Of a stretch of DNA of 64,000 bases, positions 13,683 through 54,384 are shown piece after piece (the first letter of the stretch is position 1; each line of letters opens with the position of its first letter). Source of the stretch: Syntrophaceae bacterium UBA4767. GTDB lineage: Bacteria > Desulfobacterota > Syntrophia > Syntrophales > UBA4767. The position numbers and the translations under genes were made by a program. The notes below the pieces were generated by a model. It was not told the origin of the DNA and did not search any database. It worked only from the letters and a program-made list of their open reading frames with translations. The stretch is from assembly GCA_002403385.1 (NCBI GenBank), contig DHHR01000067.1:7937-71936 (forward strand). The letters are read 5' to 3'.

Positions 13683-13763
13683 ACGCTCCCCAAACAGAAA
13701 ACAAGGGGTAAATATCCATGATTAATGCCGCCCCTTGTTCATTCCAGCTTCTTATGGCATCCT

Positions 13764-16202
<2,439 letters not shown>

Positions 16203-16220
16203 CTAAAAAAATTATTAACT

Positions 16221-18941: not shown

Positions 18942-18976
18942 GAGGGCAACACCTTATTAACAGCTTTGTAAACACC

Positions 18977-18985
18977 TGTTGATAA
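18977..18985. promoter_or_regulatory. DnaA-box-like 9-mer TGTTGATAA upstream of dnaA
   Basis: One mismatch to consensus. TTATTAACA (18954-18962, 2 mismatches) lies nearby in the 111-bp parB-dnaA spacer. Confidence 0.35.
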
Positions 18986-19052
18986 CCAATTGATGACCAA
19001 GAAATTTAAATCTGATTACTTTCTTTGTTTGCGTGAAAACAAACAATATATC

Positions 19053-33114: not shown

Positions 33115-33188
33115 TGGGAGATCGTTCAACGGCAGGACAACGGACTCTGACTCCGTGAATCGTGGTTCGAATCCACGTCTCCCAGCCA
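33115..33188 (+). tRNA. tRNA-Gln (anticodon CUG)
   Basis: Hand-folded cloverleaf. Acceptor stem TGGGAGA/TCTCCCA, D stem GTTC/GGAC, anticodon stem ACGGA/TCCGT with loop CT-CTG-AC, T arm CGTGG-TTCGAAT-CCACG, discriminator G and an encoded CCA. Confidence 0.9.
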
Positions 33189-34179: not shown

Positions 34180-34265
34180 TTCTCTCCTTAATTGTCCTTC
34201 AAAATCAAATTGACGCGCAGTTTGTAGCCAATGAGGCATATTATGGTTAATGCTCAACCAAGGAT

Positions 34266-36270: not shown

Positions 36271-36271
36271 C

Positions 36272-37201
36272 TCAACTCACCGATTTTCCTATTCTGTCGG
36301 CCACAACAACTCCCATGGCAATTTGCGTTATAATAGCATCGCGAAGATCCGATCGCGCGGGGATGCATACTGCTCCCCTGGAAGTCACGGTAAGAGAACA
36401 ACGCTTTACCCCAAGCAGCAGGTCGAGTTTGCAGAGAATGTTTCCCGTGTCAAGGCAGGGAACGAGGAAGATATGGGGTGTTTTCATGAGATCGATTTCA
36501 CTGTAATTGTTTAAATGCCCCCCCATACCCATGAAGATTTCGGAGAGAGACGTGGAATCGATGATTTCGCACTCTCCCATATCGCCAGAAGCAGCAACCT
36601 GTTTGAGCGATTCATAATCATGATAAGAAGACAATGTTTCACTGAACTCCCGTTGGGCGGAGAGTACGGCTATTTGCGGTTTTTTATACCCAAACAGATG
36701 GTACAGAAAGACGGCATTCTTGAGGATTTCCACCTTTGTCTTGAAATCCGGATTAATAGTGACACCCGTGTCTGTGATGGCAACCAAGTGATCGACTTCG
36801 GGCATTTCCCAGAGCGATATGACGCTTACTTTCATGCCGGAGCCCGCTTTCGCTTCGGCCCTAATTGTCGAGCGGTAGATGTAGGATGTGGGTATCTGAC
36901 CTTTGCTTACAATGGACAGCTTTCCCGAAAAGAGCAGGTTGATCCCAAGATCGGAGATGGTTTGCCGGTCGTTTTCGACAATCTTTTCAAATCCACTGAT
37001 GTCGAATTTAATGTTTTTTGCTAGCCGTTCCATCTTTTTTGTATTCCCGATGAGGATCGGTTCGATATACCCCATCTCACAGCTTCTTTTTACGGCAAGC
37101 ATGAACTCTTCATCTTCCGGAGCAAGGACGGCAAGTTTCTTCGGCCCACATTTCTGCGCCAGCTTGGCAATGTCTCTTAACGATCGAACCATTGATTCCA
37201 C
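36272..37201 (-). CDS. second, divergent PTA/PTB-family paralog
   Basis: 309 aa with the same architecture as the downstream ptb, but clearly divergent in sequence. One nucleotide separates the two genes. Confidence 0.7.
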   Translation of the reverse strand: MESMVRSLRDIAKLAQKCGPKKLAVLAPEDEEFMLAVKRSCEMGYIEPILIGNTKKMERLAKNIKFDISGFEKIVENDRQTISDLGINLLFSGKLSIVSKGQIPTSYIYRSTIRAEAKAGSGMKVSVISLWEMPEVDHLVAITDTGVTINPDFKTKVEILKNAVFLYHLFGYKKPQIAVLSAQREFSETLSSYHDYESLKQVAASGDMGECEIIDSTSLSEIFMGMGGHLNNYSEIDLMKTPHIFLVPCLDTGNILCKLDLLLGVKRCSLTVTSRGAVCIPARSDLRDAIITQIAMGVVVADRIGKSVS

Positions 37202-37226
37202 CTTTCGACTACTTTTGCGGATCGGG

Positions 37227-38750
37227 TCAAATCCGGAAAAAATTCAGGCCACCTTTTAAGCGCACCTTGCCTTTTTTACCGATAAACTCTCGTTTTGTCA
37301 TCTCATCGATTGCATCCTTATCCGGTTCGGCTTTTGCCAAAAAGCGGTGGCCGTTGGGGAGTCTTCCGATGATTGTCGCATCTACAGGACGGCCTTCTCT
37401 GTCGTGGAAAATGCTGTAGGTTTCAATCTCTGCATCCCCGGAGGCATCCGACAGAAGTTGCGGCCCTTTTATCTCATCCAGATCCTTCCGGTAGACGTCA
37501 GGAGCGGGGATGTTGTGAGGAGTTTGCCGCCATCTTCCAGAATATATGCCCACAGAGTGCTTGCTGATAAACCAGCTTAGAGCCTGGACCAAACCAATCT
37601 TGTCCTTCTCGCGCCGGAGCAGCTCGACCATTTTGCAGATTGCATGCAGAGCATAATTGTTGCCAGGTCCGCCGAAATAGGGCATGCCTCCTGTGACAGA
37701 GAGAGGCCGCCGGTTGTCGTGTATGCCCAGCATGTCGCGCACCATGCGCGGCGCGCAGGGAAAACAGCTATACAGGTCAAGGTAGTCAATTTTATCGATG
37801 GTTATTCCCGCTTGGTCCAGAGCCATCGCTGCCGCAATCTTGACCGAAGGCGACGAAAAACAATTCACCCGTTCAGATACATGCCAGATATCCATAGCGT
37901 CTCCCGATCCCACAAGATAGACCCATTTTTCTGCGGGAACGCCCAATTCTGACGCGGTCCGCTCACTCGTCAGAAAAAGAGCCGCACCCTGATCCACCTG
38001 CATGATCGAGCACATAAATTTTGTATAGGGGAAGGATACCATTGGATTAGAGCTTGATACGTTGATAATTTCCTCCATCGTTTTTTTATCCCTGAACCAT
38101 GAAAATGGGTTCTCGGCGGCTATGGCGGACAGTCCGGCGCAGAACTCGCCTAATTCCGCGGCGTGGTTTTCGATGGAAAGATTTTTGTGATGCCGAAAGG
38201 CATTTTCGAAGAGGGGATATACGTTGATGGGAAGCGTGAGTCCATATTTCACTTCCAGAGCAGAGGACGGGTCACGGAGTTCCCCTGCCATCCATGGCTT
38301 TTTAGGAGGCAAATCCCACTGCTGAAATATTTTTCGCTTGAGTTTCGCTTCGATTTTTGCAGAGTGAAACGCTTCTCCACCGCAAATCAGGGCAATGCCT
38401 GTCTTCCCTTCAAAAATATTCTTGGCGGCCTGGTTGACAAACCATTGGGGGGCGGTTGCCCCGATCCATGTGTAGGCTTTTTGCCTCGGTGCAATGCCAA
38501 TCCTTGACGATATTTCTGAAAGAGGGTCAGAGTAATGACTCGACATGATATTCACCAGATAAAGCGTGTCCACCTTTTCTGTCAGCTTTTTTGTGCATGA
38601 ATCATCTTGCGCCGCACGAACGGCCGCTTCAATCATGTCCAGGGGGTTTTTGATGTCCACAGGATCGTAAGATCTGTTGACGCTCTGCCCTATGCCAATG
38701 ATCACAGGGCGCTGATGGGAAGAGAAAATAGGCATTTGGTTTTTCCTCAT
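37227..38750 (-). CDS. thiolase-like protein, TLP1/SCP-x-thiolase-related, with an extra C-terminal beta-rich domain
   Basis: Thiolase-fold blocks are present (GGEAF, LYSCFPCAP, GGMPYFGGPGNNYALHAI). The position of the nucleophilic Cys reads IGATAPQ, with no Cys. The start is uncertain: 38750 or 38735 (AGGA upstream). The ORF-track start at 38846 would overlap marR. Confidence 0.7.
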   Translation of the reverse strand: MRKNQMPIFSSHQRPVIIGIGQSVNRSYDPVDIKNPLDMIEAAVRAAQDDSCTKKLTEKVDTLYLVNIMSSHYSDPLSEISSRIGIAPRQKAYTWIGATAPQWFVNQAAKNIFEGKTGIALICGGEAFHSAKIEAKLKRKIFQQWDLPPKKPWMAGELRDPSSALEVKYGLTLPINVYPLFENAFRHHKNLSIENHAAELGEFCAGLSAIAAENPFSWFRDKKTMEEIINVSSSNPMVSFPYTKFMCSIMQVDQGAALFLTSERTASELGVPAEKWVYLVGSGDAMDIWHVSERVNCFSSPSVKIAAAMALDQAGITIDKIDYLDLYSCFPCAPRMVRDMLGIHDNRRPLSVTGGMPYFGGPGNNYALHAICKMVELLRREKDKIGLVQALSWFISKHSVGIYSGRWRQTPHNIPAPDVYRKDLDEIKGPQLLSDASGDAEIETYSIFHDREGRPVDATIIGRLPNGHRFLAKAEPDKDAIDEMTKREFIGKKGKVRLKGGLNFFRI

Positions 38751-38800
38751 GTTGCAATGTTTTTTAATGAAGGTTCTCTGTTTGGGAAAGATGATTTGTC

Positions 38801-39217
38801 TTACGGCAACTCCAGCCGACTCAAATATTCTTGAAATCGCTTCCATTCATCGGGGGCGAAGCGGTTTACAAAATGGCTATTTGTTTGCTCAAACAAGCTT
38901 AAAAAATCCCCTTTATTATTTATGGCTTTAGCAGATGGAAAAATTCGATACATGCGACGATCCCTAGGTTCCGTATGCCGTTCAACCCAGCCATCCCTCT
39001 CGAGTCTATCAAGCAGACCCGTGGCAGTGGGACGATCCAGTTCAGTTTTGTCGGCCAGTTGGCTTGGCAGAAGACCTTCTTCTTCTAAAATTGCGCACAG
39101 CATGAAAAACTGCCCATGTGTCAGCCCGTATTTTGTTATGCCTTCCCGATATCTTCGTCTGATTTTTTGTGAAGCTCGATTAAGCTGAAAACAAACGCAT
39201 CGTTCCAATTCGCTCAT
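38801..39217 (-). CDS. MarR family transcriptional regulator
   Basis: 138 aa with winged-HTH region LTHGQFFMLCAILEEEGLLPSQLADKTELDRPTATGLLDRLERDGWVER. Confidence 0.9.
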   Translation of the reverse strand: MSELERCVCFQLNRASQKIRRRYREGITKYGLTHGQFFMLCAILEEEGLLPSQLADKTELDRPTATGLLDRLERDGWVERHTEPRDRRMYRIFPSAKAINNKGDFLSLFEQTNSHFVNRFAPDEWKRFQEYLSRLELP

Positions 39218-39231
39218 CTATTCATCCTTTT

Positions 39232-40161
39232 CTATCTTTTGCGTATAAGTCCATCTTCTTGCCGTATTACCTTGCCTTCCTGCTCGAGCTTAATCAGGTG
39301 GCTCTCCAGCAATTGGGGGCCAGGGAATAATTGGACAGTAGGTTTAGGGTAAAGTTTGCCGCATAGATCCATGAAGCTTAGAGGACGATCGCCTAGAGTC
39401 TGCAATATGAGCGATTCGAGTTGAAGAATGTGCGCCTTGGTGCGTTCAATCGCCTCACGCGCCATTACGATATTTTCACCATGAGAAGGTAAAATAATGC
39501 GGGCATTTAACTTTGCAAGCCGCTCCAGGCCATTAAGATAACCGATGGCTCCCCCGGAAGACGGCGAATACCATGCCACTACCTTTCCCACCACATCTCC
39601 GGTAAATAATACTCCGCTGTCGGGGTCAAAAAGAGAAACATGGCCGGGGGCATGGCCAGGTGTGTGAATTACATGGAAACGGAATTTACCCATGCACAGG
39701 GTGTCTCCATCCGTCATGGCGTTGGTAGCGTGCGAGGAAGACATAGGACATAGCCCGGCAAAATAATCCAAGACATTGATGTTTTCTAAAGAGGGGTTAC
39801 TTTCAGATGATCCGCGTCTTTTGGCGAGGTTGTAGTCAAAAGTCTGGTTCAGGAGCTGGGGGTCGGCAGCCAGAGGGATTTCAAAGTCATGCAGGTATAT
39901 GCGCGGGGATATCTCTTGCAACAAAAAACCCATCGCCCCCATGTGGTCTGGGTGGGCATGGGAAATCACAATGGTATGGACATCACGAAGGCTAAGACCT
40001 TCATTATTCAAAAAATTTTTCAAGGTGTTGAATTTTTCTTCTTTTCCGCAACCGACGTCAATGAGGATGGCTCCATCTCGATCACGGACAAGGAATACAT
40101 TTGCAGAAGCAGGCCACATGTGACTTTCTTCTCTCATTACTTTTATTTCACCAGATATCAC
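39232..40161 (-). CDS. MBL-fold metallo-hydrolase
   Basis: 309 aa with a GTG start and GGAGG upstream. Motifs ISHAHPDHMG and TPGHAPGH. Carries a C-terminal extension of about 70 aa. Confidence 0.85.
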   Translation of the reverse strand: MISGEIKVMREESHMWPASANVFLVRDRDGAILIDVGCGKEEKFNTLKNFLNNEGLSLRDVHTIVISHAHPDHMGAMGFLLQEISPRIYLHDFEIPLAADPQLLNQTFDYNLAKRRGSSESNPSLENINVLDYFAGLCPMSSSHATNAMTDGDTLCMGKFRFHVIHTPGHAPGHVSLFDPDSGVLFTGDVVGKVVAWYSPSSGGAIGYLNGLERLAKLNARIILPSHGENIVMAREAIERTKAHILQLESLILQTLGDRPLSFMDLCGKLYPKPTVQLFPGPQLLESHLIKLEQEGKVIRQEDGLIRKR

Positions 40162-40352: not shown

Positions 40353-42845
40353 TTATCCCAACCCCTGGACGGTTCTCTGGATGATATTGTCCTGAGTTTT
40401 GCGGCTGATGTCCACAAAATGAGCGCTGTAACCAGCTACACGAACAATCACCTCTGAGTATTTCTCTGGATCCTTTTGCGCAGCACGGAGCGTCGCATCA
40501 TCAATCATGTTAAACTGAACATGATCATTCCCGAGATCAGCCCATGTATGCATGTATGCTTTCCAAAGCTGATAACCTTTCTCTCCGGCTAACTGTGTTG
40601 GAGATAAGCGTTGATTTAACAAAAACGCCCGCCCGTCACTGACATGATCAATTTTTCCGCATGATTTCAATACAGCCGTTGGGCCCTTTTTATCCAGACC
40701 CGGCCCTGGAGAGATACCGCCATCATACAAAGCGTCGCCAAGCCTTCTGCCATTGGGTAGCGCCCCTACAACGTTGGCATAATGTATATTGCCGCTCACA
40801 TTCTCGGGAAGAGCAGGCCAGTTATTCCCTGAAGTGCACTTAATAACCCGGGAATGGCGCGCTGCTTCTCTTAAACATCGAAGCATAATCTGATCCACAT
40901 AGTTATCATCATTACCCCACTTCGGCGCATTGCGAACAAAATCCATCCGCATTTCTTCGAAACCTTCCCAATTAGCCTCCAGAGCATCCATCAACTGAGC
41001 CATCGTGTATTTCTTATCATCAAAAACCAACTTCTTAACCGCAGCAAGACTATCTGCATTCTCCACCCAGGTAAAGAAAGTAACCCAAGCATTGCCGCGC
41101 TCACCCTCAGGACTTATAGCATCAATCCCTGATTCTACGGAACGTTCATATATCGCTGATAAAAACGGGCGACCATTGTTCTTGGGATCAAGCATTCTTC
41201 CCATATTTACTGTTCGGGTCAAAATATTCATAATCCATTCCATCTGCTTGACCCATGCACTAAAAAGCTGTTCAAAATCAGCAAACTTTCGCGCATCTCC
41301 TGTCTTTGGCCCCATCTGCATATTGACTACACGGTCATATCCATTAGAAAGAGCATATTCAATCATCTTGGCGGTGTTAGCCGTAGCATGAGCCATACGC
41401 ATAGCCAGACACCCATGCTTAGTAGTAGGACAAGGAGACATACAGGCCTGATGAACCCAGGTTCTTGCTTCTTCAACGGGATGACCATGCCAGTTCATGG
41501 AATTGGCAATCAGAACGGGATCATTTCGCATAGAAGGGTACCCCAAACCTTGCCTGATACATTCGAAACACTCCCGCATGACTTCATCTTTCACCTTGGG
41601 GTGCCATCTAAAACCAAATGTCGGATTAGATACTCTTACCAACCTCGCAGCCTGCATATAAGCTACAGTTATATCATTACATGCATCAGAGCCATCTGGA
41701 TGAACTCCTCCCATAGTCCAAACCCAGGTTCCGGTAATGCCCTGAAGTCCCTCTCTTCCCAAACGTGGAACAAAAATCCCAATTTCATAGGCCCTTATTA
41801 GTTGCTCTCCAATTAGATCCAAAGCGTCTTCTTTGGTTAACCGTTTTTCAACATTTACATCTTTATCATAATAAGACCCATGAACATAATCCGGGCGATG
41901 CGGCCAGGCCAATTCTATTCCTTCTATACGTGAAAGCACGTGCACAAAATGGTCAAACTGCAAAGATTCTTGAAGATTCCGTGGTGGCATAGCGGGAACA
42001 CGTTCACAGGTCTCGGCAATACGCAAAAGTTCCTCTTTTCTTTTCGTATCCATTTCAAAATGCTCTGCAATGATTCGTGCAAGTCGAGAATATCTTTGTG
42101 CATAACGAATTGCAGCATCAAGGATGAGCTGCATGCCTTCCCAATTTCGCATCTTCTCATAAAGAGGAAAGAGTTCTGGTCCGGAAGGCCCCTGAAGCTT
42201 TTCATCTGTTTCATCCAGATGCTTTTCAATTTCGGCGATTATCGCTTTAAATCCTTTAAATATGAAATTAAAATCTTTGCTGGCATAACCACCAAACGAG
42301 GTAGGAACGCCCCAACCTATGGCGCCACTGACAAATTTCACTGCATCTTCAGGATCAATAGCGCGAACCAGGTGATCGAGCGCAGTCCGTCCAGCCCAAT
42401 AATCATTCAATTCAGCCAAAAGCTTTAATGATTCATCTTCTGGCTCAGGAATGAGACCTTGGGTATTATAGACTTCCTCATTAAACATACTCGCCCATTC
42501 ATGTGCATGAAGCAAAGTATGTGGCGCGTTAGAAACACATCCTACTATTTGAGATTGATCCGTAATAAATATGGAGATATTGTCTAATACATTTGCTAAT
42601 GCCTTTGCTTTTCTTAGCATGGTTGAATCATGCTCACTGGCCTTCCACCCTTCTGTGAAGAGAACTGATCTTTCTAGGTCAACTTTTATTCCTGGTGCAT
42701 ACAAACCACCAATAGCTCCTTTCTTCCATACCGCTTTTCTTAAATAATCCAATCTCTTCGATCTGGTTTTTTCCGCCATCCACCACCACTCACGATTTTC
42801 TTTGAGCTCTTCTAACGATTTATCTTTCGATGCGGTTACGGACAT
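40353..42845 (-). CDS. glycyl radical enzyme, X-succinate synthase (fumarate-adding, BssA/AssA-like) clade candidate
   Basis: 830 aa from ATG 42845 (GGAGGG 7 nt upstream). Glycyl motif VRVAGYSAHFVD (Gly codon 40431-40433). Cys loop HQACMSPCP (Cys codon 41442-41444). Additional blocks APKWGNDDNY, ANWEGFEEMRMDF, DKKGPTAVLKS and LLNQRLSP. Confidence 0.85.
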   Translation of the reverse strand: MSVTASKDKSLEELKENREWWWMAEKTRSKRLDYLRKAVWKKGAIGGLYAPGIKVDLERSVLFTEGWKASEHDSTMLRKAKALANVLDNISIFITDQSQIVGCVSNAPHTLLHAHEWASMFNEEVYNTQGLIPEPEDESLKLLAELNDYWAGRTALDHLVRAIDPEDAVKFVSGAIGWGVPTSFGGYASKDFNFIFKGFKAIIAEIEKHLDETDEKLQGPSGPELFPLYEKMRNWEGMQLILDAAIRYAQRYSRLARIIAEHFEMDTKRKEELLRIAETCERVPAMPPRNLQESLQFDHFVHVLSRIEGIELAWPHRPDYVHGSYYDKDVNVEKRLTKEDALDLIGEQLIRAYEIGIFVPRLGREGLQGITGTWVWTMGGVHPDGSDACNDITVAYMQAARLVRVSNPTFGFRWHPKVKDEVMRECFECIRQGLGYPSMRNDPVLIANSMNWHGHPVEEARTWVHQACMSPCPTTKHGCLAMRMAHATANTAKMIEYALSNGYDRVVNMQMGPKTGDARKFADFEQLFSAWVKQMEWIMNILTRTVNMGRMLDPKNNGRPFLSAIYERSVESGIDAISPEGERGNAWVTFFTWVENADSLAAVKKLVFDDKKYTMAQLMDALEANWEGFEEMRMDFVRNAPKWGNDDNYVDQIMLRCLREAARHSRVIKCTSGNNWPALPENVSGNIHYANVVGALPNGRRLGDALYDGGISPGPGLDKKGPTAVLKSCGKIDHVSDGRAFLLNQRLSPTQLAGEKGYQLWKAYMHTWADLGNDHVQFNMIDDATLRAAQKDPEKYSEVIVRVAGYSAHFVDISRKTQDNIIQRTVQGLG

Positions 42846-42884
42846 AATAACACCCTCCTTCCTTAAGTTCATTCCAATCTTGTT

Positions 42885-42902
42885 TTGTTAATTGAATAAC
42901 AA
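42885..42902. promoter_or_regulatory. 18-bp palindrome TTGTTAATTGAATAACAA, candidate operator (MarR-type?)
   Basis: 7 of 9 positions are self-complementary. Located 40-57 nt upstream of the GRE start codon. Confidence 0.3.
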
Positions 42903-43120
42903 GGAACAATTCACAGTGTTTTTGTTTCTATCCGCCTCCTATTTTGCAAATAAGCTTGCCCAAAGATGATTTCTCTATAAAAATAGTATTCCGCTAGGTC
43001 ACGCAACCATATGGCAAGACTTCAGGTAAATAACTAGCACACTAATTATTTAAACGCAAACTATTTTTTACCAGTTAGATGTAAAAATATGATAACTGCC
43101 TAGGGCGAACAATGAATTTT

Positions 43121-43217
43121 GACAAAATCGTAAAAAGTCAAAATTCGCGGATTTTGTCATGGTGAGCACTTCGGCCGGCTCAGGGTGACAATTGGGACTT
43201 TTTACGAGTGCATCAAT
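43121..43217. repeat. intergenic repeat, copy B
   Basis: A 47-nt module, GACAAAATCGTAAAAAGTCAAAATTCGCGGATTTTGTCATGGTGAGC, differs at 1 nt from 57742-57788. A second module, CTCAGGGTGACAATTGGGACtTTTTACGAGtgCATCAAT, matches 57839-57877. Confidence 0.8.
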
Positions 43218-43237
43218 TTTGAAAGGAGAATTACGTA

Positions 43238-44434: not shown

Positions 44435-44679
44435 CTATATAACAAATAAAAGGTAAAGTGCACATGGTTTTTAGTAATCGGAAAAGACCATTCCGAAAAA
44501 GCTTCTTGCTGTCATGGCGCTGCAGAAAAGGATGTCTTATCTTAGGGCGCCCCGCGAGCAGAAAATGATAGGACACAAAAAACTTGACTATTTGTGCTCC
44601 AACCACATAGAAATACATCTTTAAAAGTTATCCTAAAGATGTAAACAACCCACAAGGAAGGATTGATGGGCAACTCACG

Positions 44680-45840
44680 GTGAGAATACACGAATTTCAG
44701 GCCAAGGAGCTTTTGCGGCGCTATGGTGTGCCTGTGCCTTTGGGTGAGATGGCGCAAACCCCTGAGTCGGTTCGTAAGATCGCTTTGCAACTGGGAACGA
44801 AAGTGGTAATCAAAGCGCAAATCCACGCGGGGGGGCGGGGTAAGGCAGGAGGGATCCTTTTTGCGGAAACGCCTGAGGATGCATACCGGAAAGCGAAAAA
44901 GCTCATAGGCAGGACTCTGGTTACGGCGCAGACAGGACCTGAAGGGAAGCGTGTCCAAAAGGTCATGGTCGAAAGGCTGACGCCTGTCCGGAAAGAAATG
45001 TACCTCGCTTTGATCATAAGCCGCGCGCGGGGCATGGAATGTCCTGTTTTCATGGCTTCCAGCATAGGGGGGATGGAGATAGAGAAAATAGCCACAAAAG
45101 CTCCGGAAGAGCTGGCAACGGTTGCCGTTCACCCTGCTGTGGGATTTAGCCCTTTTCAAGGGAGAAAACTTGCCGGCGGACTGGGTTTGAAGGATTCTTT
45201 GAGAGAGCAACTGACTGATATTGTCAAAAACATATACGATTTTTTCGTTCAAAACGATGCGTTGCTCGTGGAAATCAATCCCCTGGGAATCGATGATCAG
45301 GAACGGCTTGTTGCTTTGGATGCGAAAATCCAGTTCGACGAAGACGCTCTTTTTCGCCATCCGAAACTAAAGGAACTTCAGGACGTGACACAAGTGGATC
45401 CTTTGGAGTGGGAGTCCCTTGCTGCGGGGTTTAGATATATTGTCCTGGATGGCGACGTGGGATGCATTATCAATGGGGCGGGACTCGCAATGGCAACGAT
45501 GGACTTGATTAAACTGGCCGGAGGGAAGCCGGCGAATTTTCTGGATGTGGGAGGGGGGGCATCTCCCGGGCAGATAGCACAGGCGTTTCGTATCCTGGCT
45601 TCACATCCGAATGTCAAGGTTATATTGATCAATGTCTTTGGAGGGATTCTTCGCTGTGATTGGGTGGCAGCGGGGTTGTGCGAAGCGGTCCCAAAAATGA
45701 GAAGAGATATACCTGTGGTTATCCGTCTGCAAGGGACCAACAAGGAAGAAGGCCGTCGCCTTCTCAAGGAGGCGGACTTTCATTTTGAAACGGCGGAAGG
45801 TCTTTTCGAGGCGGTGCAAAAGGCTGTATCTTTAACTTGA
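44680..45840 (+). CDS. sucC: succinate--CoA ligase (ADP-forming) beta subunit
   Basis: 386 aa with a GTG start. N-terminus MRIHEFQAKELL and an ATP-grasp domain. Confidence 0.95.
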   Translation: MRIHEFQAKELLRRYGVPVPLGEMAQTPESVRKIALQLGTKVVIKAQIHAGGRGKAGGILFAETPEDAYRKAKKLIGRTLVTAQTGPEGKRVQKVMVERLTPVRKEMYLALIISRARGMECPVFMASSIGGMEIEKIATKAPEELATVAVHPAVGFSPFQGRKLAGGLGLKDSLREQLTDIVKNIYDFFVQNDALLVEINPLGIDDQERLVALDAKIQFDEDALFRHPKLKELQDVTQVDPLEWESLAAGFRYIVLDGDVGCIINGAGLAMATMDLIKLAGGKPANFLDVGGGASPGQIAQAFRILASHPNVKVILINVFGGILRCDWVAAGLCEAVPKMRRDIPVVIRLQGTNKEEGRRLLKEADFHFETAEGLFEAVQKAVSLT

Positions 45841-45872
45841 AACAATGAAAAATACGAAAGAATGACTTGAAA

Positions 45873-46760
45873 ATGGCCATACTTTTTGATAAGAACTCCC
45901 GAGTCGTCTCCCAGGGCATTACAGGGGAAACAGGGCGCTTCCATACCCGTGAAGCCATCAAGTTTGGAACCAGGATTGTTGCCGGCGTGGCGGTGGGGAA
46001 AGGCGAAACGTTTTTTGACGGGATTCCTGTCTATGATCGGGTGGTTGATGCCGTAAAGCGACATGGGACTAATGCTTCGGGGATATATGTCCCCCCAGCC
46101 TCTGCGATGGACGCAATTATTGAGCAGATTGAAGCGGGGATTTCCTTAATCGTATGTGTGACGGAAGGTATTCCCCTTCATGATATGGTGAAGGTCAAAC
46201 AGGCGCTGAAAGGTTCGGCGTCTCGGATGATCGGCCCGAATTGTCCGGGCATCACCACCCCTGGAGACGGTAAAATTGGCTTTATGCCTAACTTTATTCA
46301 TAAAAAAGGCCATGTGGGTGTGGTTTCCAAAAGCGGAACGCTCACCTATGAGATTATCTGGCAGCTGACCCAGATGGGCATCGGTCAATCGACCTCGGTG
46401 GGAATTGGCGGCGATCCCATTGTGGGTTCCGATTTCGTTGATATATTGGCCCTTTTTGAACAGGATTCCCAGACGAAACTGATCGTGCTCATCGGGGAAA
46501 TCGGCGGCGATGCGGAGCATGAAGCGGCCGATTTTATTAAGGAAAAGATGAAAAAGCCGGTGGTTGCCTTTGTGGCGGGTCGAACGTCTCCTCCGGGAAA
46601 AAGGATGGGCCATGCCGGTGCGATCATCGGCGGGGCCAGAGAAACGGCGCAGGAGAAGGAAAAAGCATTGAAAAGGGCGGGTGCGACCATTGCGGAAAAT
46701 CCTGTTGAGATTGGTGTCGTGGTCAAGGAAATCCTGGCTGGGGCGTATACCCGTTCATAA
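45873..46760 (+). CDS. sucD: succinate--CoA ligase alpha subunit
   Basis: GITGETGRFH, SKSGTLTYE and MGHAGAII (phosphohistidine loop) motifs. ATG 45873 is preferred over the TTG at 45867. Confidence 0.95.
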   Translation: MAILFDKNSRVVSQGITGETGRFHTREAIKFGTRIVAGVAVGKGETFFDGIPVYDRVVDAVKRHGTNASGIYVPPASAMDAIIEQIEAGISLIVCVTEGIPLHDMVKVKQALKGSASRMIGPNCPGITTPGDGKIGFMPNFIHKKGHVGVVSKSGTLTYEIIWQLTQMGIGQSTSVGIGGDPIVGSDFVDILALFEQDSQTKLIVLIGEIGGDAEHEAADFIKEKMKKPVVAFVAGRTSPPGKRMGHAGAIIGGARETAQEKEKALKRAGATIAENPVEIGVVVKEILAGAYTRS

Positions 46761-46861
46761 CGATAGTTGTTTTGATAAGGATTCAATATTTTAGAGGAAG
46801 GAGGATGTAAGCGGAGGTGTAAGGCCGGCGGAAAGCTGGTTGGAGCACACCGTGGAGGGTT

Positions 46862-49045
46862 ATGTCGAAAGATCAAAATCAAAACAAAGAACCGCAATGT
46901 GCAAATGTAGATGTGGGTTTGTTTGCCGAATTTTCCGGTGTGACATACAAACAGTGGCGTGATGCTGCCGAACAGACCCTGAAAGGGGCGCCTTTTGAGA
47001 AGAAACTCGTTACCAAAACATATGAGGGAATAGACCTTCAGCCTATCTACTGGCAGGAGGATATCGAAACTTTATCCCATACCGCTTCCTTTCCGGGGAA
47101 AATTCCCTATCTCCGCCATCGCGACATACTAGGTTACCTGTTGGAACCATGGCGGGTAAGCCAGGAGTTGGTGGATGCAACGCCTGCGTTGCTGAATCAA
47201 GCAGCCCGCAATGATTTGGAAAGAGGGCAGACGGAATTGAATGTTTTGTTGGACCAGGCCGCTCTGGCGGGTATGGATGCCGATGCGGCGAAGACACAGC
47301 AGGTAGGCAAGGGCGGCGTTTCCATATCGAGTAGTGAAGATATGGCAAAGATGCTGGAAGATATCGCCATCGATAAGGCGCCGATTTACCTTCAGGCCGG
47401 CGCTGTGGCGCTGCCGGCGCTGGCGCTGTTGATCTCCGTGACAAAGGATCGCAAAATTCCGCTTGACAAGCTAAGCGGGTGTGTCGGCATGGACCCGCTT
47501 GCCGTTTTAGCCGATAAGGGCGCCTTACCCTATTCTTTGCAGGGGGCCTACGATATGATGGCGGCCTTGACCCTGTGGGCGAAAAAAAACGTTCCCGCAT
47601 TGCAAACAATTGTGGTTCAGACCCACCCTTACCATAATGGCGGCGGTAATTCCGTTCAGGAGCTGGCCTACGCCATGGCGACGGCGGTGGAATACGTAAG
47701 CGAAATGCTCTCCAGGGGCATCTCCATTGATGAGATAACTCCACGGATTCGATTTTCCTTCTCTGTGGGTTCGAAATTTTTTATGGAAGTTGCCAAATTG
47801 CGGGCGGCCCGGCTGCTTTGGACACAGATCGTGCAAGCTTTTGGAGGGCAAGAAGAAGCGCAGAAGATGCACATGCATGTTTGTACCTCCCTCTGGACAA
47901 AAACCGTCTATGATCCCTATGTGAACATGTTAAGGACAACAACGGAGGCTTTTTCGGGAATCATGGGAGGCGCCAACAGCATTCACGTGGGAGCTTTCGA
48001 TCAGGTCATCCGGCCGCCGGATGAATTCTCCCGGCGTATTGCCAGAAATATTCAAATTATTTTGGAAAAGGAATCCAAGCTAGGCGTTCCCATCGATCAG
48101 TCAGGAGGTTCATGGTACATTGAAAAGCTGACCGATGAGGTGGCGAAAAAAGCATGGTCTGTCTTCCAGGAGCTGGAGGCGAAGGGCGGTATGTCCAAAG
48201 CATTGAAGGAAGGCATTCCCCAGGCACAAATCGCCAAGGTGGCGGCGGAGCGAAAAACAAACATCGGCCATCGTCGCGACATTTTTGTCGGAACGAATAT
48301 GTATCCCAACTTGGGAGAAACTCCTCTGCCTCCCCGGGCGGTGGATCATGAGGCTGTTCAGGAAGAACAGTCTGAGCAGTTGGCTCGTTTCCGAGCTTTG
48401 CGGGATGAAAAAAAGCTAAAGGCGGCATTGGGGATGCTTGCCGCGGCCAAGAAAACCGCGGGCGAAGAACTGGTTGCTGCTGCCATTGCGGCAGCCCAAG
48501 CCGGGGCCACACTGGGCGATATTGCCGAAAAGCTTAGGGATGATGCTGTAACACCGAAAATTCAGGCTATTCCATGTGAACGAGGAGCCGAAATTTTCGA
48601 GGCCCTGCGGAAAGCGGCAGAGCAATATCAGACAAAAACAGGCTCCCGGCCGAAGGTGTTTTTGGCCAACATGGGGCCCATCCCCCAGCATAAAGCCCGG
48701 GCGGATTTTTCCACAGGTTTTTTTGAAACGGGCGGATTTGAAGTGATCAAGAACGACGGCTTTCCAACCGTGGAAGATGCGGCAAAAGCCGCTCTTGAAT
48801 CGAAAGCATCGCTGGTTGTGATTTGCTCGACGGACGATACCTATCCGGAATTGGTCCCACCGCTTGCAAAACGGATAAAGGAAGCGAGTCCGAATGTAAC
48901 GATTATTCTTGCCGGTTATCCGGTGGATCATGTGGATGCCTTCAAGCAGGCGGGCGTTGATGACTTTATCCACATGAGGGCAAATTGTTATGAGATGCTT
49001 CGCAAGTTACAGGAGAAGAAAGGAGTGGCGTATAATGGCAAATAA
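46862..49045 (+). CDS. mutA: methylmalonyl-CoA mutase family, non-catalytic beta-type subunit (lacks the B12 His ligand motif)
   Basis: 727 aa with the mutase barrel ([15 protein letters not shown]) and a C-terminal flavodoxin-like domain. That domain reads [14 protein letters not shown] where the alpha subunit has DxHxxG. Confidence 0.85.
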
Positions 49046-51224
49046 ACCGGATTTCACTGCGATTGAATATGGAAAAGGGAATGTCCCGACTCTTTCGCTT
49101 GACGCCTGGCGCAAGCAGGCTGAAAAAGAAGCGGGAAGGACGCTGGAAGCGCTGTATTGGAAAACCGACGAGCAGATCGCCGTCAAACCTCTTTATATCA
49201 GAGAGGATTTGGATAAGGAAGAACACATCGGTTTTACGGCAGGGATTGAACCTTTCCTGCGGGGGCCGTATCCCACGATGTATGTGACAAGGCCATGGAC
49301 GGTTCGCCAGTACGCCGGTTTTTCGACGGCGGAGGAAAGCAATGCCTTTTATCGCCGCAATTTGGCGGCCGGTCAGAAGGGGCTTTCCATCGCTTTCGAT
49401 CTGGCAACCCATCGTGGCTATGATTCCGATAACCCCCGTGTCGTTGGCGATGTTGGAAAGGCGGGGGTGGCCATCGATTCGCTGTTGGACATGAAGATCC
49501 TCTTTGACGGCATTCCCCTCGATAAAATGTCCGTTTCCATGACCATGAACGGCGCCGTGCTCCCTGTGATGGCCTTTTACATTGTAGCCGCGGAAGAGCA
49601 GGGGGTCAAATTTCCCCAGCTCAACGGCACCATTCAAAATGACATCCTCAAAGAATACATGGTGCGCAATACTTACATCTATCCACCTTCGCCTTCCATG
49701 CGGATCATCGCCGATATTTTTGAGTTCACGTCCAAAAACATGCCGAAATATAACAATATCAGCATTTCCGGTTACCATATGGAGGAGGCGGGAGCGACAT
49801 CGGACCTCGAGCTGGCCTATACGCTGGCGGACGGATGGGAATATGTGAGGGCGGGAATTAAGGCGGGGATCGATATTGACGCCTTCGCTCCGAGGCTGTC
49901 CTTCTTTTTTGCCGTCGGCATGAATTATTTCATGGAAGTGGCCAAATTGCGGGCTGCCCGGCTGCTCTGGGCGAAGATCATCAAGCAGTTTAATCCCAAG
50001 GATTCCAGATCCCTGGCGCTGCGCACCCATTGCCAGACGTCGGGCTGGAGCCTAACGGAGCAGGATCCCTACAACAATGTGGCAAGAACCTGCGTGGAGG
50101 CCATGGCGGCAGCCATGGGACATACCCAATCGCTGCATACCAATTCTTTTGACGAAGCGTGTACATTGCCGACGGATTTTTCGGCGCGTATTTCCCGTAA
50201 TACCCAGCTCTATCTGCAGGATGAAACGGGCATGTGCGCCGTGGTGGATCCCTGGGGCGGGTCGTATTATGTGGAAGCGCTGACAGGCGCCCTCGCCCGC
50301 AGGGCGTGGCAGCATATACAGGAGGTCGAGTCGCTGGGCGGAATGGCCAAGGCCATCGAAACGGGCTTGCCTAAGATGCGTATAGAGGAAGCTGCCGCGC
50401 GTCGTCAGGCCCATATTGATTCCGGCAAGGAAGCCATCATCGGGGTCAACAAGTATCGTCTGGCCAAAGAAGAACCCCTGGAAATTTTGGAAATCGATAA
50501 CACGGCTGTTCGCACGGCTCAGATTAATCGCCTGGCAAAACTGCGCAAGGAACGGGACGAAGCGAAGGTGCGGGCAGCCCTCAATGCGATTACCAAGGCG
50601 GCGGAAACAGGCAAGGGAAATCTGTTGGCCCTTTCCATTGAAGCGGCCCGGGCGCGGGCGTCGTTGGGAGAAATTTCAGATGCCATGGAAAAGGTGTTCG
50701 GGCGCCATAAGGCCGTTATCCGATCCATCTCCGGTGTGTACAGCGCCGAATTCGGCGAGGAGGAAGACGTGGCGAAGGTCCGTAAGATGACGGATGAATT
50801 CGAAAAACATGAAGGACGCCGTCCCCGGATTATGATCGCGAAAATGGGACAGGATGGACACGACCGCGGCGCGAAAGTCATTGCCACGGCATTCGCGGAT
50901 ATGGGATTTGATGTGGATATCGGGCCCCTTTTCCAAACACCGGAAGAAACGGCTCAGCAGGCGGTGGAAAATGATGTCCATGTGATCGGCATGAGTTCTC
51001 TGGCCGCCGGCCACAAGACCCTCTTGCCAAAACTGGTGGAGGAACTAAAGCGACTCGGTCGGGAGGACATCCTGATTGTAGCAGGCGGTGTTATCCCCGC
51101 GCAGGATTATGAATATCTCAAAACAAATGGAGCGGCTGCGATTTTCGGTCCGGGAACGGTTATTCCTGTTGCCGCTCAGAAGGTTCTCGAGGAGATCAAC
51201 CGCCGCTTGACGGAAACACATTAA
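49035..51224 (+). CDS. mutB: methylmalonyl-CoA mutase catalytic alpha subunit
   Basis: 729 aa from ATG 49035 (AGGAG 9 nt upstream), overlapping mutA by 11 nt. Motifs [13 protein letters not shown] and [15 protein letters not shown]. The B12 motif is [12 protein letters not shown]. Confidence 0.95.
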
Positions 51225-52361
51225 ATGATGACGCCTAAAAAGCAGAGGCCAGAATGGGCGCCGCTGGAAAGTGGTGACGCTTTTACCTCGTTTGTGATGG
51301 AGGGGGTGGAAGGCGGTCATGACGGTATGCCGGGGCAATCTACAAGAGGTTCTGCCAATGTTATCCGACCGGTGTATCGCCGGCTTTCCGTGGAAGATTA
51401 TGTCAAGGGAGTGTTGGCAGGAAATCGAACCATCCTGGCGCAGGCCATTACACTGATTGAAAGCAACGCGCCGGCTCACGTGGAAATGGCGCAGGAAGCG
51501 CTTAAGCAACTTTTGCCCCATACCGGCAGGGCTATGCGTGTGGGCATTACCGGTGTTCCGGGATCGGGGAAGAGCACCTTCATCGAAGCTCTGGGGTGTA
51601 TGCTTTGCGCTCAGGGGCATAAGGTAGCGGTTCTGGCGGTCGATCCGAGCAGCACCATTACTCGTGGCAGTATTTTAGGGGATAAGACGCGTATGGACGC
51701 CCTTTCCCGTAAAAAGCATGCTTTTATCCGCCCTTCTCCTTCGGGAGGAACGCTGGGAGGTGTCGCCCGTAAGAGCCAGGAAACCATGCTGGTTTGCGAG
51801 GCTGCCGGTTTTGATGTGGTTCTTATCGAGACGGTAGGCGTGGGTCAGAGCGAAGTCACCGTGCGGTCCATGGTGGATTTTTTTCTGTTGCTTGTGCTTA
51901 CGGGAGCCGGTGACGAATTGCAGGGCATAAAAAGAGGGGTCATGGAACTGGCCGATGCGTTGGTGATAAATAAGGCGGACGGGGACAACAGGCTTCGCGC
52001 TCAATCCACCAAGGCAGAGTATGACCGGATTTTGCACTATCTCCAGCCCGCGACGGAAGGTTGGATAACGCGCGCCTTTACCTGTTCGTCGCTGACAGGG
52101 GAAGGAGTGGAGGAGATTTGGGCTGTCATTGAGGATTTTCGGGAAAAGACGGTGAAATCAGGCGTGTTTTATGACAGAAGGCGGGCTCAGATCTTGGATT
52201 GGGTCTATACGATGGTTTGGGAGCACCTGCGGATAAGGTTTCTGAATCATCCGGGTGTTGCGGCAATTACCCCCAAGGTGGAGCAGGATGTTTTGAATGG
52301 GAAGCTTTCCGCGACGATGGCGGTCAGAGAGCTGATCGACACGTTTGAAAGGCAAAAATAA
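51225..52361 (+). CDS. meaB: methylmalonyl-CoA mutase-associated G-protein chaperone (MeaB/ArgK)
   Basis: P-loop GVPGSGKST, plus DPSS and the G4 motif INKADG. The N-terminus is about 50 aa longer than usual, so the start is uncertain. Confidence 0.9.
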   Translation: MMTPKKQRPEWAPLESGDAFTSFVMEGVEGGHDGMPGQSTRGSANVIRPVYRRLSVEDYVKGVLAGNRTILAQAITLIESNAPAHVEMAQEALKQLLPHTGRAMRVGITGVPGSGKSTFIEALGCMLCAQGHKVAVLAVDPSSTITRGSILGDKTRMDALSRKKHAFIRPSPSGGTLGGVARKSQETMLVCEAAGFDVVLIETVGVGQSEVTVRSMVDFFLLLVLTGAGDELQGIKRGVMELADALVINKADGDNRLRAQSTKAEYDRILHYLQPATEGWITRAFTCSSLTGEGVEEIWAVIEDFREKTVKSGVFYDRRRAQILDWVYTMVWEHLRIRFLNHPGVAAITPKVEQDVLNGKLSATMAVRELIDTFERQK

Positions 52362-52384
52362 TATTAATTCGAGAGGAATGTATC

Positions 52385-52789
52385 ATGAAAACACTGAAGG
52401 TTGACCACATTGGCATAGCAGTTCAAAGCATCGGGGAAGCATTGAAATTCTATTCTGATATCCTGGGCTTGAAATTGGCAGGAGAAGAAGTGGTTCAGGA
52501 ACAAAAGGTGAAAACGGCTTTTCTTCCCATCGGCGATACGGAGGTAGAGCTTCTGGAATCCACGGCGCCGGATGGGCCCATCGCAAAGTTCATCGAGAAG
52601 AAGGGGGAAGGAATTCAGCACATCGCCTTTTTGGTGGATAATATTGAAGAGGCCCTGAAAGAACTTGGAGAAAAAGGGGTCAAGATGATTGACCAGAAGC
52701 CGCGTATGGGCGCAGGTGAAAAACGCATCGCATTCCTTCACCCGAAAGATACCTACGGCGTTTTGGTGGAGCTGTGTGAGAAAAAATAA
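52385..52789 (+). CDS. mce: methylmalonyl-CoA epimerase (VOC superfamily)
   Basis: 134 aa with VDHIGIAV...EGIQHIAF...HPK motifs. Lies in the mutase operon. Confidence 0.9.
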   Translation: MKTLKVDHIGIAVQSIGEALKFYSDILGLKLAGEEVVQEQKVKTAFLPIGDTEVELLESTAPDGPIAKFIEKKGEGIQHIAFLVDNIEEALKELGEKGVKMIDQKPRMGAGEKRIAFLHPKDTYGVLVELCEKK

Positions 52790-52830
52790 CGGTTTGACAT
52801 TCCGTTCAAACAAATGAAGGAGAAACTTAA

Positions 52831-54384
52831 ATGAGCGAGAAACCCTTGAAGTTAAAGGAAATGGAGGAAATGGCTGCTCGTATTCGGGCCATGGGCGGCG
52901 AAAAACAGGTCAAAAAGCATCGTGAAGGTGGAAGGTTGACGGCCAGGGAAAGGCTCGATAAATTGTTTGATCCGGGATCGTTCAATGAAGTGGGTCTTTT
53001 TGTAAAGCACCGTGGCACCGGTCTTGGCATGGCAAATATGGATATTCCGGCGGACGGCGTCATCACGGGTTTTGGGACGGTGAATGGTCGCACGGCGCTT
53101 GCCTTTTCACAGGATTTTACCTCCCGCGCGGGAACCCTGGGAGAGATGCATGCCAAAAAAATCTGCAAGGTCATGGATCTATCCTTAAAAATGAAGGCGC
53201 CCCTTGTCGGATTTAACGATTCCGGCGGGGCACGTATTCAAGAAGGTGTGGATGCCCTAGGCGGTTACGGCGAGATATTTTTCAGAAATTCTTGTGCGTC
53301 AGGCGTTGTTCCACAGATTTCCGCCATTATGGGGCCGACGGCCGGAGGAGCAGTGTATTCTCCTGCCATGACGGATTGGGTGTTTATGGTCAAACAAACC
53401 TCCCGGATGTTCATCACGGGGCCTGATGTCATCAAGACGGTAACAGGAGAAGAGATTGATCCGGAATCTCTGGGCGGGGCCATGACCCACAACACGAAAA
53501 GCGGTGTGGCGCACTTTGCCTGTGAAAGCGACGCGGAAGCCGTCGAGCAGATCAAGGTGATGTTGAGCTACTTGCCGTCGAGCAACCTCGAAAAGCCTCC
53601 CTTTGTAGAGACGGGAGACGATCCGGCAAGGATGGATGAAAAGTTAGATACCATTGTGCCCGAAAATCCGAGAAGAATGTATGACATGAAGACGGTAATC
53701 CATTCCTTGGTGGACAACGGTGAATTTCTGGAGCCTCATGAACACTATGCACGTAATATAATTGTCTGTTTCGCGCGCATGGGAGGACGAGCAGTAGGAA
53801 TCATCGCCAATCAGCCGAAAGTTCTGGCCGGGTGTCTGGATGTCGATGCCTCCGATAAGGCGACGCGTTTTATCCGTTTCTGTGACGCTTTCAATATTCC
53901 CCTGCTGACCCTTACGGATGTCCCCGGCTACCTTCCAGGAAGCGATCAGGAATGGCGCGGGATTATCCGCCACGGGGCAAAGCTTTTGTGGTGTTATTCG
54001 GAAGCCACGGTGCCTAAGATAATGCTGGTTACCCGCAAGGATTACGGTGGTTCTTATCTGGCCATGTGCAGTCAGCATCTGGGGGCGGATATTGTTCTGG
54101 CGTGGCCGACAGCGGAAATCGCCGTGATGGGCGCCGAAGGCGCAGCCAACATTATCTTTCGTAAAGAGATCGAGGCGGCAGAAGATCCAGAGGCAAAGCG
54201 GGAAGAGAAGATCAAGGAGTACAGAGACCGTTTTTCGAACCCTTACATTGCAGCAGCGAGGGGTTTTGTGGATGAGGTTATTGCCCCCCGGGAAAGCCGG
54301 CCCAGAATCATTCACGCATTGAAAATGCTTGAAAACAAAGAGGAAAAACGCCCATATAAAAAGCATGGCAACATTCCCATGTAA
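52831..54384 (+). CDS. acyl-CoA carboxyltransferase (methylmalonyl-CoA carboxyltransferase 12S / propionyl-CoA carboxylase beta type)
   Basis: 517 aa with DSGGARIQEG and MGPTAGGAVYSPA motifs and a duplicated crotonase-like carboxyltransferase fold. Confidence 0.92.
   Translation: MSEKPLKLKEMEEMAARIRAMGGEKQVKKHREGGRLTARERLDKLFDPGSFNEVGLFVKHRGTGLGMANMDIPADGVITGFGTVNGRTALAFSQDFTSRAGTLGEMHAKKICKVMDLSLKMKAPLVGFNDSGGARIQEGVDALGGYGEIFFRNSCASGVVPQISAIMGPTAGGAVYSPAMTDWVFMVKQTSRMFITGPDVIKTVTGEEIDPESLGGAMTHNTKSGVAHFACESDAEAVEQIKVMLSYLPSSNLEKPPFVETGDDPARMDEKLDTIVPENPRRMYDMKTVIHSLVDNGEFLEPHEHYARNIIVCFARMGGRAVGIIANQPKVLAGCLDVDASDKATRFIRFCDAFNIPLLTLTDVPGYLPGSDQEWRGIIRHGAKLLWCYSEATVPKIMLVTRKDYGGSYLAMCSQHLGADIVLAWPTAEIAVMGAEGAANIIFRKEIEAAEDPEAKREEKIKEYRDRFSNPYIAAARGFVDEVIAPRESRPRIIHALKMLENKEEKRPYKKHGNIPM

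Follow-up and report, generated by a model that had tools for sequence, protein, structure and literature searches.

Alkylsuccinate synthases initiate anaerobic alkane breakdown in oil reservoirs, in seeps and in contaminated aquifers; assA, the gene for their catalytic alpha subunit, is the standard marker of this process. The present analysis concerns a gene of this type on the reverse strand of a 64-kb stretch of contig DHHR01000067.1 from Syntrophaceae bacterium UBA4767 (hereafter the window). Probably, this gene encodes a functional AssA/MasD-type alpha subunit that has been separated from its operon and whose partner subunits and activase are most likely supplied in trans. The enzyme class is a known one, a protein with 69% identity has a solved structure, and no new class is revealed; the unusual aspect of the locus is limited to the conserved, selected orphan position of the gene.

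The best solved structure for comparison is that of MasD, the alpha subunit of the (1-methylalkyl)succinate synthase (MASS) of the denitrifying betaproteobacterium Azoarcus/Aromatoleum sp. HxN1 (PDB 9O8U; PMC12358834), which acts on C6-C8 n-alkanes and whose gene shares an operon with masB, masC, masE and an activase gene. Cryo-electron microscopy of MASS identified Cys477 and Arg492 as key residues, placed Glu690 (Gln707 in benzylsuccinate synthase, BSS), Tyr194 and Thr598 (Asn615 in BSS) around fumarate, and added Phe600 (Ile617 in BSS), Trp185 as the gate and, at the alkane pocket's distal end, Phe192; Trp185 and Phe600 are said to occlude the toluene site (PMC12358834). In the same complex, the glycyl radical domain, loop 1, the helix bundle at the C-terminus and the helix-loop-beta(-1) segment contact the activase or the beta, delta and gamma subunits; beta and delta are reported to be necessary for activity in Escherichia coli, while gamma likely improves solubility (PMC12358834). 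Operon-encoded AssA proteins of alkane degraders, sulfate-reducing or syntrophic, are also available, from Desulfoglaeba alkanexedens (P0035), Smithella (P0101), Desulfatibacillum (P0054 and P0059) and the metagenomic locus L036 (P0002). Their genes adjoin those for gamma (54 amino acids, BssC_TutF), beta (about 122 amino acids) and delta (about 73 amino acids, a MasE/AssB-like rubredoxin), together with one or two activase genes. The more distant BSS of Thauera aromatica (PDB 4PKC/5BWE), whose alpha subunit is BssA, differs in having beta and gamma subunits only and toluene as the bound substrate.

Coding sequence and placement of motifs

A single open reading frame (ORF) of 839 amino acids occupies positions 40353..42872 of the reverse strand in the ORF listing. 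The ATG at 42845 would instead yield a protein of 830 amino acids, and the sequence AAGGAGG (42860-42854), a ribosome-binding site, lies 8 nt to its 5' side. The N-termini of homologs and a 100% identical database entry of 830 amino acids (P0001) agree with this start, and the real coding sequence is thus most likely 40353-42845, the interval to which a glycyl radical enzyme (GRE) had already been assigned by an earlier, sequence-only reading of the window. Although the shorter protein is preferred, residue numbers given here follow the 839-residue frame, which begins at the upstream in-frame ATG at 42872. The features of the gene are as follows.

40353..42845, minus strand: assA/masD-type alpha-subunit gene (ORF, Pfam, PDB 9o8u_A, clade, and the ratio of nonsynonymous to synonymous substitution rates, dN/dS)
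42854..42860, minus strand: ribosome-binding site AAGGAGG (sequence reading; homolog N-termini)
42285..42314, minus strand: codons 187-196, WGVPTSFGGY, the beta(-1)/beta1 segment with Trp187 (gate), Tyr196 and F193-G194
41442..41444, minus strand: codon of Cys477, putative thiyl radical site in the loop ACMSPCP (equivalent to MasD Cys477 and BssA Cys493; role from PMC12358834)
41397..41399, minus strand: codon of Arg492, predicted binder of a fumarate carboxylate (equivalent to MasD Arg492 and BssA Arg508; invariant in 119/119; role from PMC12358834)
41073..41081, minus strand: codons of Thr598-Phe599-Phe600, with T598 and F600 as MASS-type active-site residues (Asn615 and Ile617 in BSS; roles from PMC12358834)
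40803..40805, minus strand: codon of Glu690, MASS-type residue predicted to face fumarate (E in 117/119; Gln707 in BSS; role from PMC12358834)
40431..40433, minus strand: codon of Gly814, putative glycyl radical site in RVAGYS (invariant in 119/119, aligned with the Gly of MasD and BssA)

All eight motifs quoted in the sequence-only reading were recovered at the positions it gave, namely IVRVAGYSAHFVD (residues 809-821), WVHQACMSPCP (472-482), the block KKLVFDD...NYVD (613-660), DACNDITVAYMQAA (396-409), ECIRQGLGYPS (437-447), DGGISPGPGLDKKGPTAVLKS (717-737), LLNQRLSP (751-758) and HVQFNMID (784-791). The same applies to its Gly codon (40431-40433), its Cys codon (41442-41444) and the Arg exactly 15 residues after the Cys. 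The BssA blocks that it had cited align with the window protein in a HMMER alignment to PDB 4pkc_A, including KKLVFEEKKYTLEQL...NWEGFEEMRVDF..APKWGNDDDY, DACNDMTDAIL, DKKGPTAVLRS, LLNQRLS and IVRVSGYSARFVD. A degenerate back-translation of PKWGNDD has one match, at 40906-40925; KWGNDDD is the site of the widely used bssA/assA reverse primer, and because this site is intact, assA marker surveys will count orphan copies of the gene.

Family membership and clade

The protein matches the Pfam profiles PFL-like (PF02901, E 4e-121, residues 58-680) and Gly_radical (PF01228, E 3e-28, residues 718-820) and aligns over its full length with 37 solved GRE chains. The best of these is MasD (9o8u_A, 1368 bits, residues 17-839), followed at a distance by BssA/TutD with 502 bits, while HypD, GDH, CutC, IslA, HPAD and PFL all score at most 329 bits. 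Identity to MasD reaches 69.3% across 825 residues; the active-site segments align without gaps, the Cys477/Arg492 numbering is the same and the motif RVAGYSAHF is shared. Identity to T. aromatica BssA is 36.3%, and to BssA-type proteins in general 35-37%. Well over a hundred homologs were found, with 119 full-length proteins at 69-85% identity in a large protein collection. Among the homologs are proteins of the alkane degraders Desulfothermus naphthae (77%) and D. alkanexedens (74%) and of metagenome-assembled genomes of Smithella and Desulfatibacillum (about 72%); AssA proteins of known alkane degraders span 70-85%, and the operon-encoded ones named above 72-85%. Most homologs carry generic public annotations ('formate C-acetyltransferase', 'pyruvate formate lyase family'); these names are uninformative, since no NCBIfam equivalog exceeds its own cutoff for the window protein, and such annotations hide orphan copies of assA.

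A neighbour-joining tree of 37 sequences and 794 columns, with MasD and T. aromatica BssA represented alongside further BssA-type proteins and outgroup GREs, placed the query in an AssA/MasD-type group of 27 sequences that was separated from the BssA-type clade in 100/100 bootstraps and that also holds the operon-encoded AssA proteins. AssA and BssA proteins together are set apart from the outgroup GREs by a long branch, and the sister of the query is P0002, which is operon-encoded (locus L036). The sequence-only reading had proposed a fumarate-adding X-succinate synthase (XSS) rather than an enzyme of the PFL or dehydratase type; the tree, the alignment scores, the CMSP loop and Arg492 all bear this out, and a phylogeny with curated GREs, which it had named as a check, places the query among the XSS proteins and, more narrowly, inside the AssA/MasD clade. 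AssA/MasD is accordingly a better comparison than the BssA on which that reading had leaned, and one that, as judged from the protein sequence, names the substrate class as alkanes. Its statement that the substrate cannot be named therefore holds for chain length and branching and no longer for the class, which follows from the identity to MasD and the clade. The protein is the alpha subunit of an AssA/MasD-type alkylsuccinate/(1-methylalkyl)succinate synthase, its catalysis being predicted from the family.

Active site

The active site was compared by aligning MasD and BssA with the 119 family members. The query has W187, Y196, C477, R492, T598, F600, E690 and G814, which is the MASS state at every discriminating position; Trp187 aligns with MasD W185, Tyr196 with MasD Y194, and F193-G194 with MasD A191-F192 at the distal end of the alkane pocket. 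These states prevail in the family (E690 in 117, T598 in 118, F600 in 110, Y196 in all 119 and W187 in 101 of the 119 members), and Cys477 and Arg492 are invariant (119/119), whereas BssA has Q, N, I and M at the positions of E690, T598, F600 and W187, respectively. The fumarate-binding residues, whose absence would have spoken against the earlier reading, are present, with Arg492 joined by the MASS-type Glu690, Tyr196 and Thr598.

A BSS-like XSS acting on an aromatic substrate has next to no chance of being the correct assignment. The query does share with BssA the superfamily, the fumarate-addition chemistry expected of it, the CMSP loop, the Arg 15 residues after the Cys and the aligned XSS blocks KWGNDD, DKKGPTAV, LLNQRLS and RVxGYSA. 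BssA identity is nevertheless refuted by the low overall identity of 36.3%, by the placement of the query outside the BssA-type clade with a 100/100 split, and by the active-site residues, as E690, T598 and F600 stand where BSS has Q707, N615 and I617, and W187 and F600 match the two residues of MasD that are described as blocking the site for toluene.

The sequence CPTTKHGC, which follows the Cys and had been singled out as a departure from BssA, is for the most part a pattern of the AssA family: C481 occurs in 115 of the 119 members, P482, T484 and K485 are invariant, and G487 is found in 118. C488 is found in 24 of the 119. The query and the operon-encoded AssA proteins have the same consensus Cys loop, ACMSPCPTTKHG. 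Across columns that are at least 90% conserved, the query departs at 10 positions, which equals the family median, compared with 27 for MasD. The true peculiarities of the query are F193-G194 and L489-A490, where the family has Q and P at 97-99%. Relative to MasD, the changes are A191F, F192G, A599F, N481C, T488C, S489L and P490A.

These differences raise the question of whether the enzyme, as a specialised paralog of AssA type, handles something other than an n-alkane, such as an iso-alkane, a cycloalkane or an alkane of atypical chain length. AssA-like genes have been implicated in the activation of iso- and cycloalkanes, the pocket departs from that of MasD at A191F, F192G, A599F and T488C, and L489 and A490 replace two near-invariant residues. 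Position 192 is the most variable pocket position of the family (Y47/F25/V21/...), and the FGG variant in this part of the query pocket may for this reason determine chain length, as far as the alignment can indicate. However, FGG is common to the query and its operon-borne sister P0002 and is therefore a lineage trait, not one specific to the orphan, and F599 (39/119) and C488 (24/119) are common states in the family. A non-n-alkane substrate thus appears rather unlikely.

Absence of partner genes at the locus

Essentially all long ORFs of the window were annotated by Pfam, and no radical S-adenosylmethionine (radical-SAM) domain is present among them. With partner sequences from two canonical operons, L036 and that of D. 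alkanexedens (L038), tblastn searches of the 64 kb for AssC/gamma, MasB/beta, AssB-MasE/delta and the activase retrieved the GRE itself and otherwise nothing better than E 0.13, and three AssD-type activases gave a best E of 0.40. Profile hidden Markov models for gamma (41 sequences), delta (31), beta (40) and the activase (48) likewise found no partner in the six-frame translation of the window (best E 0.33; 0.69 for the activase model). The description of the enzyme as stand-alone in the sequence-only reading is therefore apt for these 64 kb, although such an arrangement is not exceptional.

At the loci L007, L008, L010, L011, L012, L036 and L038, partner genes lie directly beside the alpha gene, and at L009 beta alone does. 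Among 29 metagenomic AssA loci with at least 1.5 kb of flanking sequence on both sides, 24 have one or more partner genes and five have none, and many have only beta or only gamma nearby; orphan assA genes are thus not rare. An orphan copy also belongs to a cultured alkane degrader, D. naphthae (P0004, 77% identical; L037:10001-12514, GCA_054657475.1), and lacks gamma, beta, delta and activase genes within 10 kb on either side; unlike the query, it is flanked by a TilS-like gene upstream and by TetR and RND efflux genes downstream. Another orphan, P0076 (71% identical; L124:5541-11674 and L126:16-6149), has no accessory or activase gene in the available flank, which across the orphans measures 5.5-10 kb. 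Like the query it adjoins methylmalonyl-CoA-mutase-type genes, but its neighbourhood differs: the alpha gene is followed directly by an acyl-CoA dehydrogenase gene and a split mutase pair (581 amino acids and a B12-binding protein of 132 amino acids), and the organism encodes a cytochrome b/Rieske complex (cytochrome bc in L124). It appears to be an independent instance of an alpha gene placed beside genes of the downstream pathway. Because D. naphthae, P0076 and the query represent separate lineages, their orphan states have apparently arisen independently.

Since no partner gene exists in the window, the partners are probably supplied in trans, and by analogy with the characterised complex the genes for the helper subunits and the activase most likely lie elsewhere in the genome. 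A homology search with activases gave no match that shared the occurrence pattern of the orphan.

The closest canonical operon, L036:3674-12671, is arranged in tandem. It comprises a delta-like ORF of 85 amino acids, genes for two different activases (322 and 307 amino acids), delta (73 amino acids), gamma (54 amino acids), a first alpha gene (GRE1, 831 amino acids), beta (122 amino acids), a second gamma (54 amino acids), the second alpha gene (GRE2, encoding P0002, 828 amino acids) and a second delta. Its two alphas are 81% identical, with a dN/dS of 0.15, and so represent paralogous alphas within one cluster.

Conservation and selection in the orphan position

The same protein with the same neighbours is present on at least 12 contigs from at least 8 samples, which rules out a chimeric assembly. 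An ortholog with 91.8% identity, P0122, shows the same orphan synteny in two further samples, where epimerase-meaB-mutase-sucDC stands divergent from M50 protease-assA-MBL hydrolase, so that the orphan arrangement predates the split of the two lineages. Between the window gene and P0122, dN/dS is 0.044 at a dS of 0.99, compared with 0.026-0.204 for seven flanking genes. The orphan is thus among the lowest of the eight genes compared and resembles neighbouring housekeeping genes, and a value of 0.044 in a conserved orphan context indicates that the gene is functional. P0122 offers a better test than P0002, because the divergence of P0002 could predate the orphan state; against P0002, synonymous sites are saturated (pS 0.79, pN 0.10). 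No acceleration of rate relative to this operon-borne sister was detected (48 versus 42 unique changes, chi-square 0.4).

It is accordingly very improbable that the gene is a non-functional relic, that is, a translocated or laterally acquired alpha gene that has fallen into disuse. Such a history could be suspected from the lack of adjacent partners, from a GC content at third codon positions (GC3) that is atypically low for the locus, and from one JGI assembly in which the gene is split by apparent frameshifts (P0125/P0127). Yet the ORF is intact, with a strong ribosome-binding site and all catalytic residues, the protein recurs unchanged across the contigs mentioned, and the dN/dS value together with the steady rate already largely refutes this explanation. 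In the JGI contig concerned (18,103 bp), the orphan gene forms two ORFs whose protein diverges after about residues 461 and 820; in L040, another assembly of the locus, the thiolase-like and kinase-like neighbours are split as well, and the splits in both are probably sequencing frameshifts rather than pseudogenes.

The regions of the alpha subunit that contact other proteins in MASS were compared with the family consensus. The glycyl radical domain, which contacts the activase and delta, has an identity of 0.96 to the consensus, whereas the median of the family is 0.91; loop 1 and the C-terminal helix bundle lie at or above the median, and the helix-loop-beta(-1) segment lies slightly below it (0.77 versus 0.82). 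This bears on the idea of a minimal, partner-independent enzyme, in which alpha would work with the activase only, or with non-homologous helpers, and without gamma, beta and delta. The empty 64 kb, the retention of the orphan state in two lineages under strong purifying selection, the recurrence of orphan assA genes (5/29 loci; L037; L124/L126) and the many loci with beta alone or gamma alone are what such an enzyme would lead one to expect. On the other hand, beta and delta are reported as necessary for the activity of MASS and gamma as an aid to its solubility (PMC12358834), three of the four subunit-contact regions at or above the family median fit retained interactions, and 64 kb are uninformative about what else a multi-megabase genome encodes. 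We regard a minimal enzyme as improbable.

Neighbouring genes

Upstream of assA lies an M50/CBS protease gene, followed by a divergent cluster of methylmalonyl-CoA pathway genes; genes for a hydrolase and a regulator lie downstream.

38801-39217, minus strand: MarR-family regulator gene, downstream of assA (putative link to assA regulation)
39232-40161, minus strand: MBL-fold hydrolase gene, downstream of assA (position conserved in the sister lineage)
42846..43237, minus strand: AT-rich upstream intergenic region of 392 bp, presumed promoter/operator, with no trace of assC (sequence; similarity searches)
44680..54384, plus strand: methylmalonyl-CoA pathway cluster (Pfam; JGI gene calls on identical contigs; sister-lineage synteny)
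44680-45840, plus strand: sucC
45867-46760, plus strand: sucD
46862-49045 and ~49035-51224, plus strand: mutase subunits
51225-52361, plus strand: meaB
52385-52789, plus strand: epimerase with glyoxalase fold (as called on identical JGI contigs)
52831-54384, plus strand: carboxyltransferase

Canonical ass operons are also flanked by mutase and MeaB genes, as is the orphan P0076, and by this analogy a functional link between assA and the methylmalonyl-CoA cluster is suggestive. In models of alkane metabolism in Desulfatibacillum alkenivorans AK-01, activities of the methylmalonyl-CoA pathway regenerate fumarate from propionyl-CoA, and related enzymes have been suggested to rearrange and decarboxylate alkylsuccinyl-CoA.

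Between the M50 protease gene and assA there is an imperfect inverted repeat (43119-43145 / 43190-43216) with arms of 27 nt, 78% complementarity and a spacer of 44 nt. Its core, with TTGACAAAATCG...CGATTTTGTCAA-like half-sites, could represent an operator, a MarR gene being near, or a terminator of the protease gene. A sigma-54-like TGGGCA...TTGCA upstream of assA was considered and rejected for its wrong spacing.

Proposed reaction, points against it and significance

The reading that we consider probable, a functional alpha subunit detached from its operon and served in trans, builds on the observed identity, clade, active-site residues, lack of partners in the 64 kb, conserved synteny and purifying selection. 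The gene would probably descend from a copy that stood in an operon, as does the alpha gene of its closest operon-encoded relative. By analogy with the family, a radical-SAM activase would abstract a hydrogen from Gly814, and the resulting glycyl radical would generate a thiyl radical on Cys477. This thiyl radical would in turn take a hydrogen from an alkane held in the hydrophobic pocket (W187, F193/G194, F599/F600), and the alkyl radical would add to fumarate, bound by amides of the Cys loop, Arg492, Glu690, Tyr196 and Thr598, to give an alkylsuccinate. The adjoining methylmalonyl-CoA cluster could regenerate fumarate from propionyl-CoA. The gamma, beta and delta subunits, presumably needed as in MASS of strain HxN1, would come from another locus, and the orphan would add to or stand in for another catalytic subunit, possibly with an alkane range of its own.

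Several observations weigh against this interpretation. The substitutions Q489L and P490A alter two near-invariant residues beside Arg492. No activase or accessory-subunit gene belonging to the organism was found: a metagenome scan with GRE1 of L036 as query returned 79 loci, none of which came from the samples of the orphan, and look-ups of P0108 (a Syntrophaceae-type AssA), P0076 and the activases P0367 and P0358, picked for their similar mix of database sources, led to other samples only. Scans for promoter and terminator consensus sequences up- and downstream of assA gave nothing convincing, with no persuasive sigma-70 consensus upstream. The mutase of the window is of the classical two-subunit, fused MutA/MutB type and not of the split type found beside canonical ass operons, and the methylmalonyl-CoA cluster may be a plain housekeeping propionate pathway of a syntroph. 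Finally, the GC3 of assA is 0.39, compared with 0.48-0.62 in its neighbours in the window.

The low GC3 may reflect compositional traces of a foreign source or drift specific to the lineage. Along assA the offset is uniform, and the syntenic ortholog (L121:10001-12493) has a GC3 of 0.52, within the range of 0.48-0.63 spanned by neighbours across both lineages. Gene conversion or a mosaic structure was rejected as a cause, as the gene is uniformly nearer to the syntenic ortholog than to P0002 over its full length. No flanking repeats, insertion sequence features or duplication scars were found around assA, and DNA similarity to relatives stops at the ORF boundaries.

The locus thus presents a well-supported alpha gene detached from its helper genes and beside a putative fumarate-regenerating cluster. 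With orphans of this kind, nature provides a test of whether paralogous alphas can draw on the same accessory subunits and activases in trans. A bolder scenario, to which we assign a low probability, is that a Syntrophales lineage lacks gamma, beta and delta genome-wide, with a minimal enzyme or unrelated helpers, or that alpha subunits are exchanged onto a shared scaffold to change the alkane range; if true, the multisubunit architecture of MASS would be not obligatory or would be modular.

Host and further features of the window

Between the GyrB encoded in the window and proteins labelled Syntrophales, Syntrophaceae, Syntrophus or Smithella, identity is 72-76%, which points to an uncultured member of Syntrophales as host, an order that includes syntrophic alkane degraders. 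The query thus belongs to a deltaproteobacterial-type organism, whereas MasD comes from a betaproteobacterium. Smithella sp. SCADC, suggested by the literature (PMC4208337), was not adopted as the source, as GyrB shows only about 72% identity to Smithella proteins and the GC content of the window is about 48%, unlike the reported 44%.

Downstream of assA and the MBL and MarR genes, a same-strand string (33262-38846, minus strand) is kept in all contigs of the locus. It includes a gene for a thiolase-like protein whose C-terminal domain is TLP1 (37227-38846), two PTA_PTB-family phosphotransacylase-like genes (36272-37201 and 35353-36270), an acetate/butyrate-kinase-like gene (34266-35360) and an M55 peptidase gene (33262-34257), all on the minus strand. 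Long opposite-strand ORFs over sucC (44542-45360), the epimerase gene (52364-52813) and a mutase gene (47043-47744), also on the minus strand, are artefacts. No cobalamin riboswitch was found by Rfam in the window near the B12-dependent mutase genes, the sole Rfam match at the gathering threshold being a tRNA gene (33115-33185, plus strand).

The window represents a chromosomal, origin-proximal region, with gyrA, gyrB, dnaN, dnaA, parB and parA at 11169-20702. A replication origin at the GC-skew minimum near 44.5 kb was rejected, because no cluster of DnaA boxes exists there and the skew tracks gene orientation. The block at 16-20 kb has a low GC content (0.375-0.39), the GC3 of dnaA being 0.33. 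DnaA-box-like 9-mers with at most one mismatch number 32 in the window, compared with 13.5 expected, and flank dnaA (17557 and 18977).

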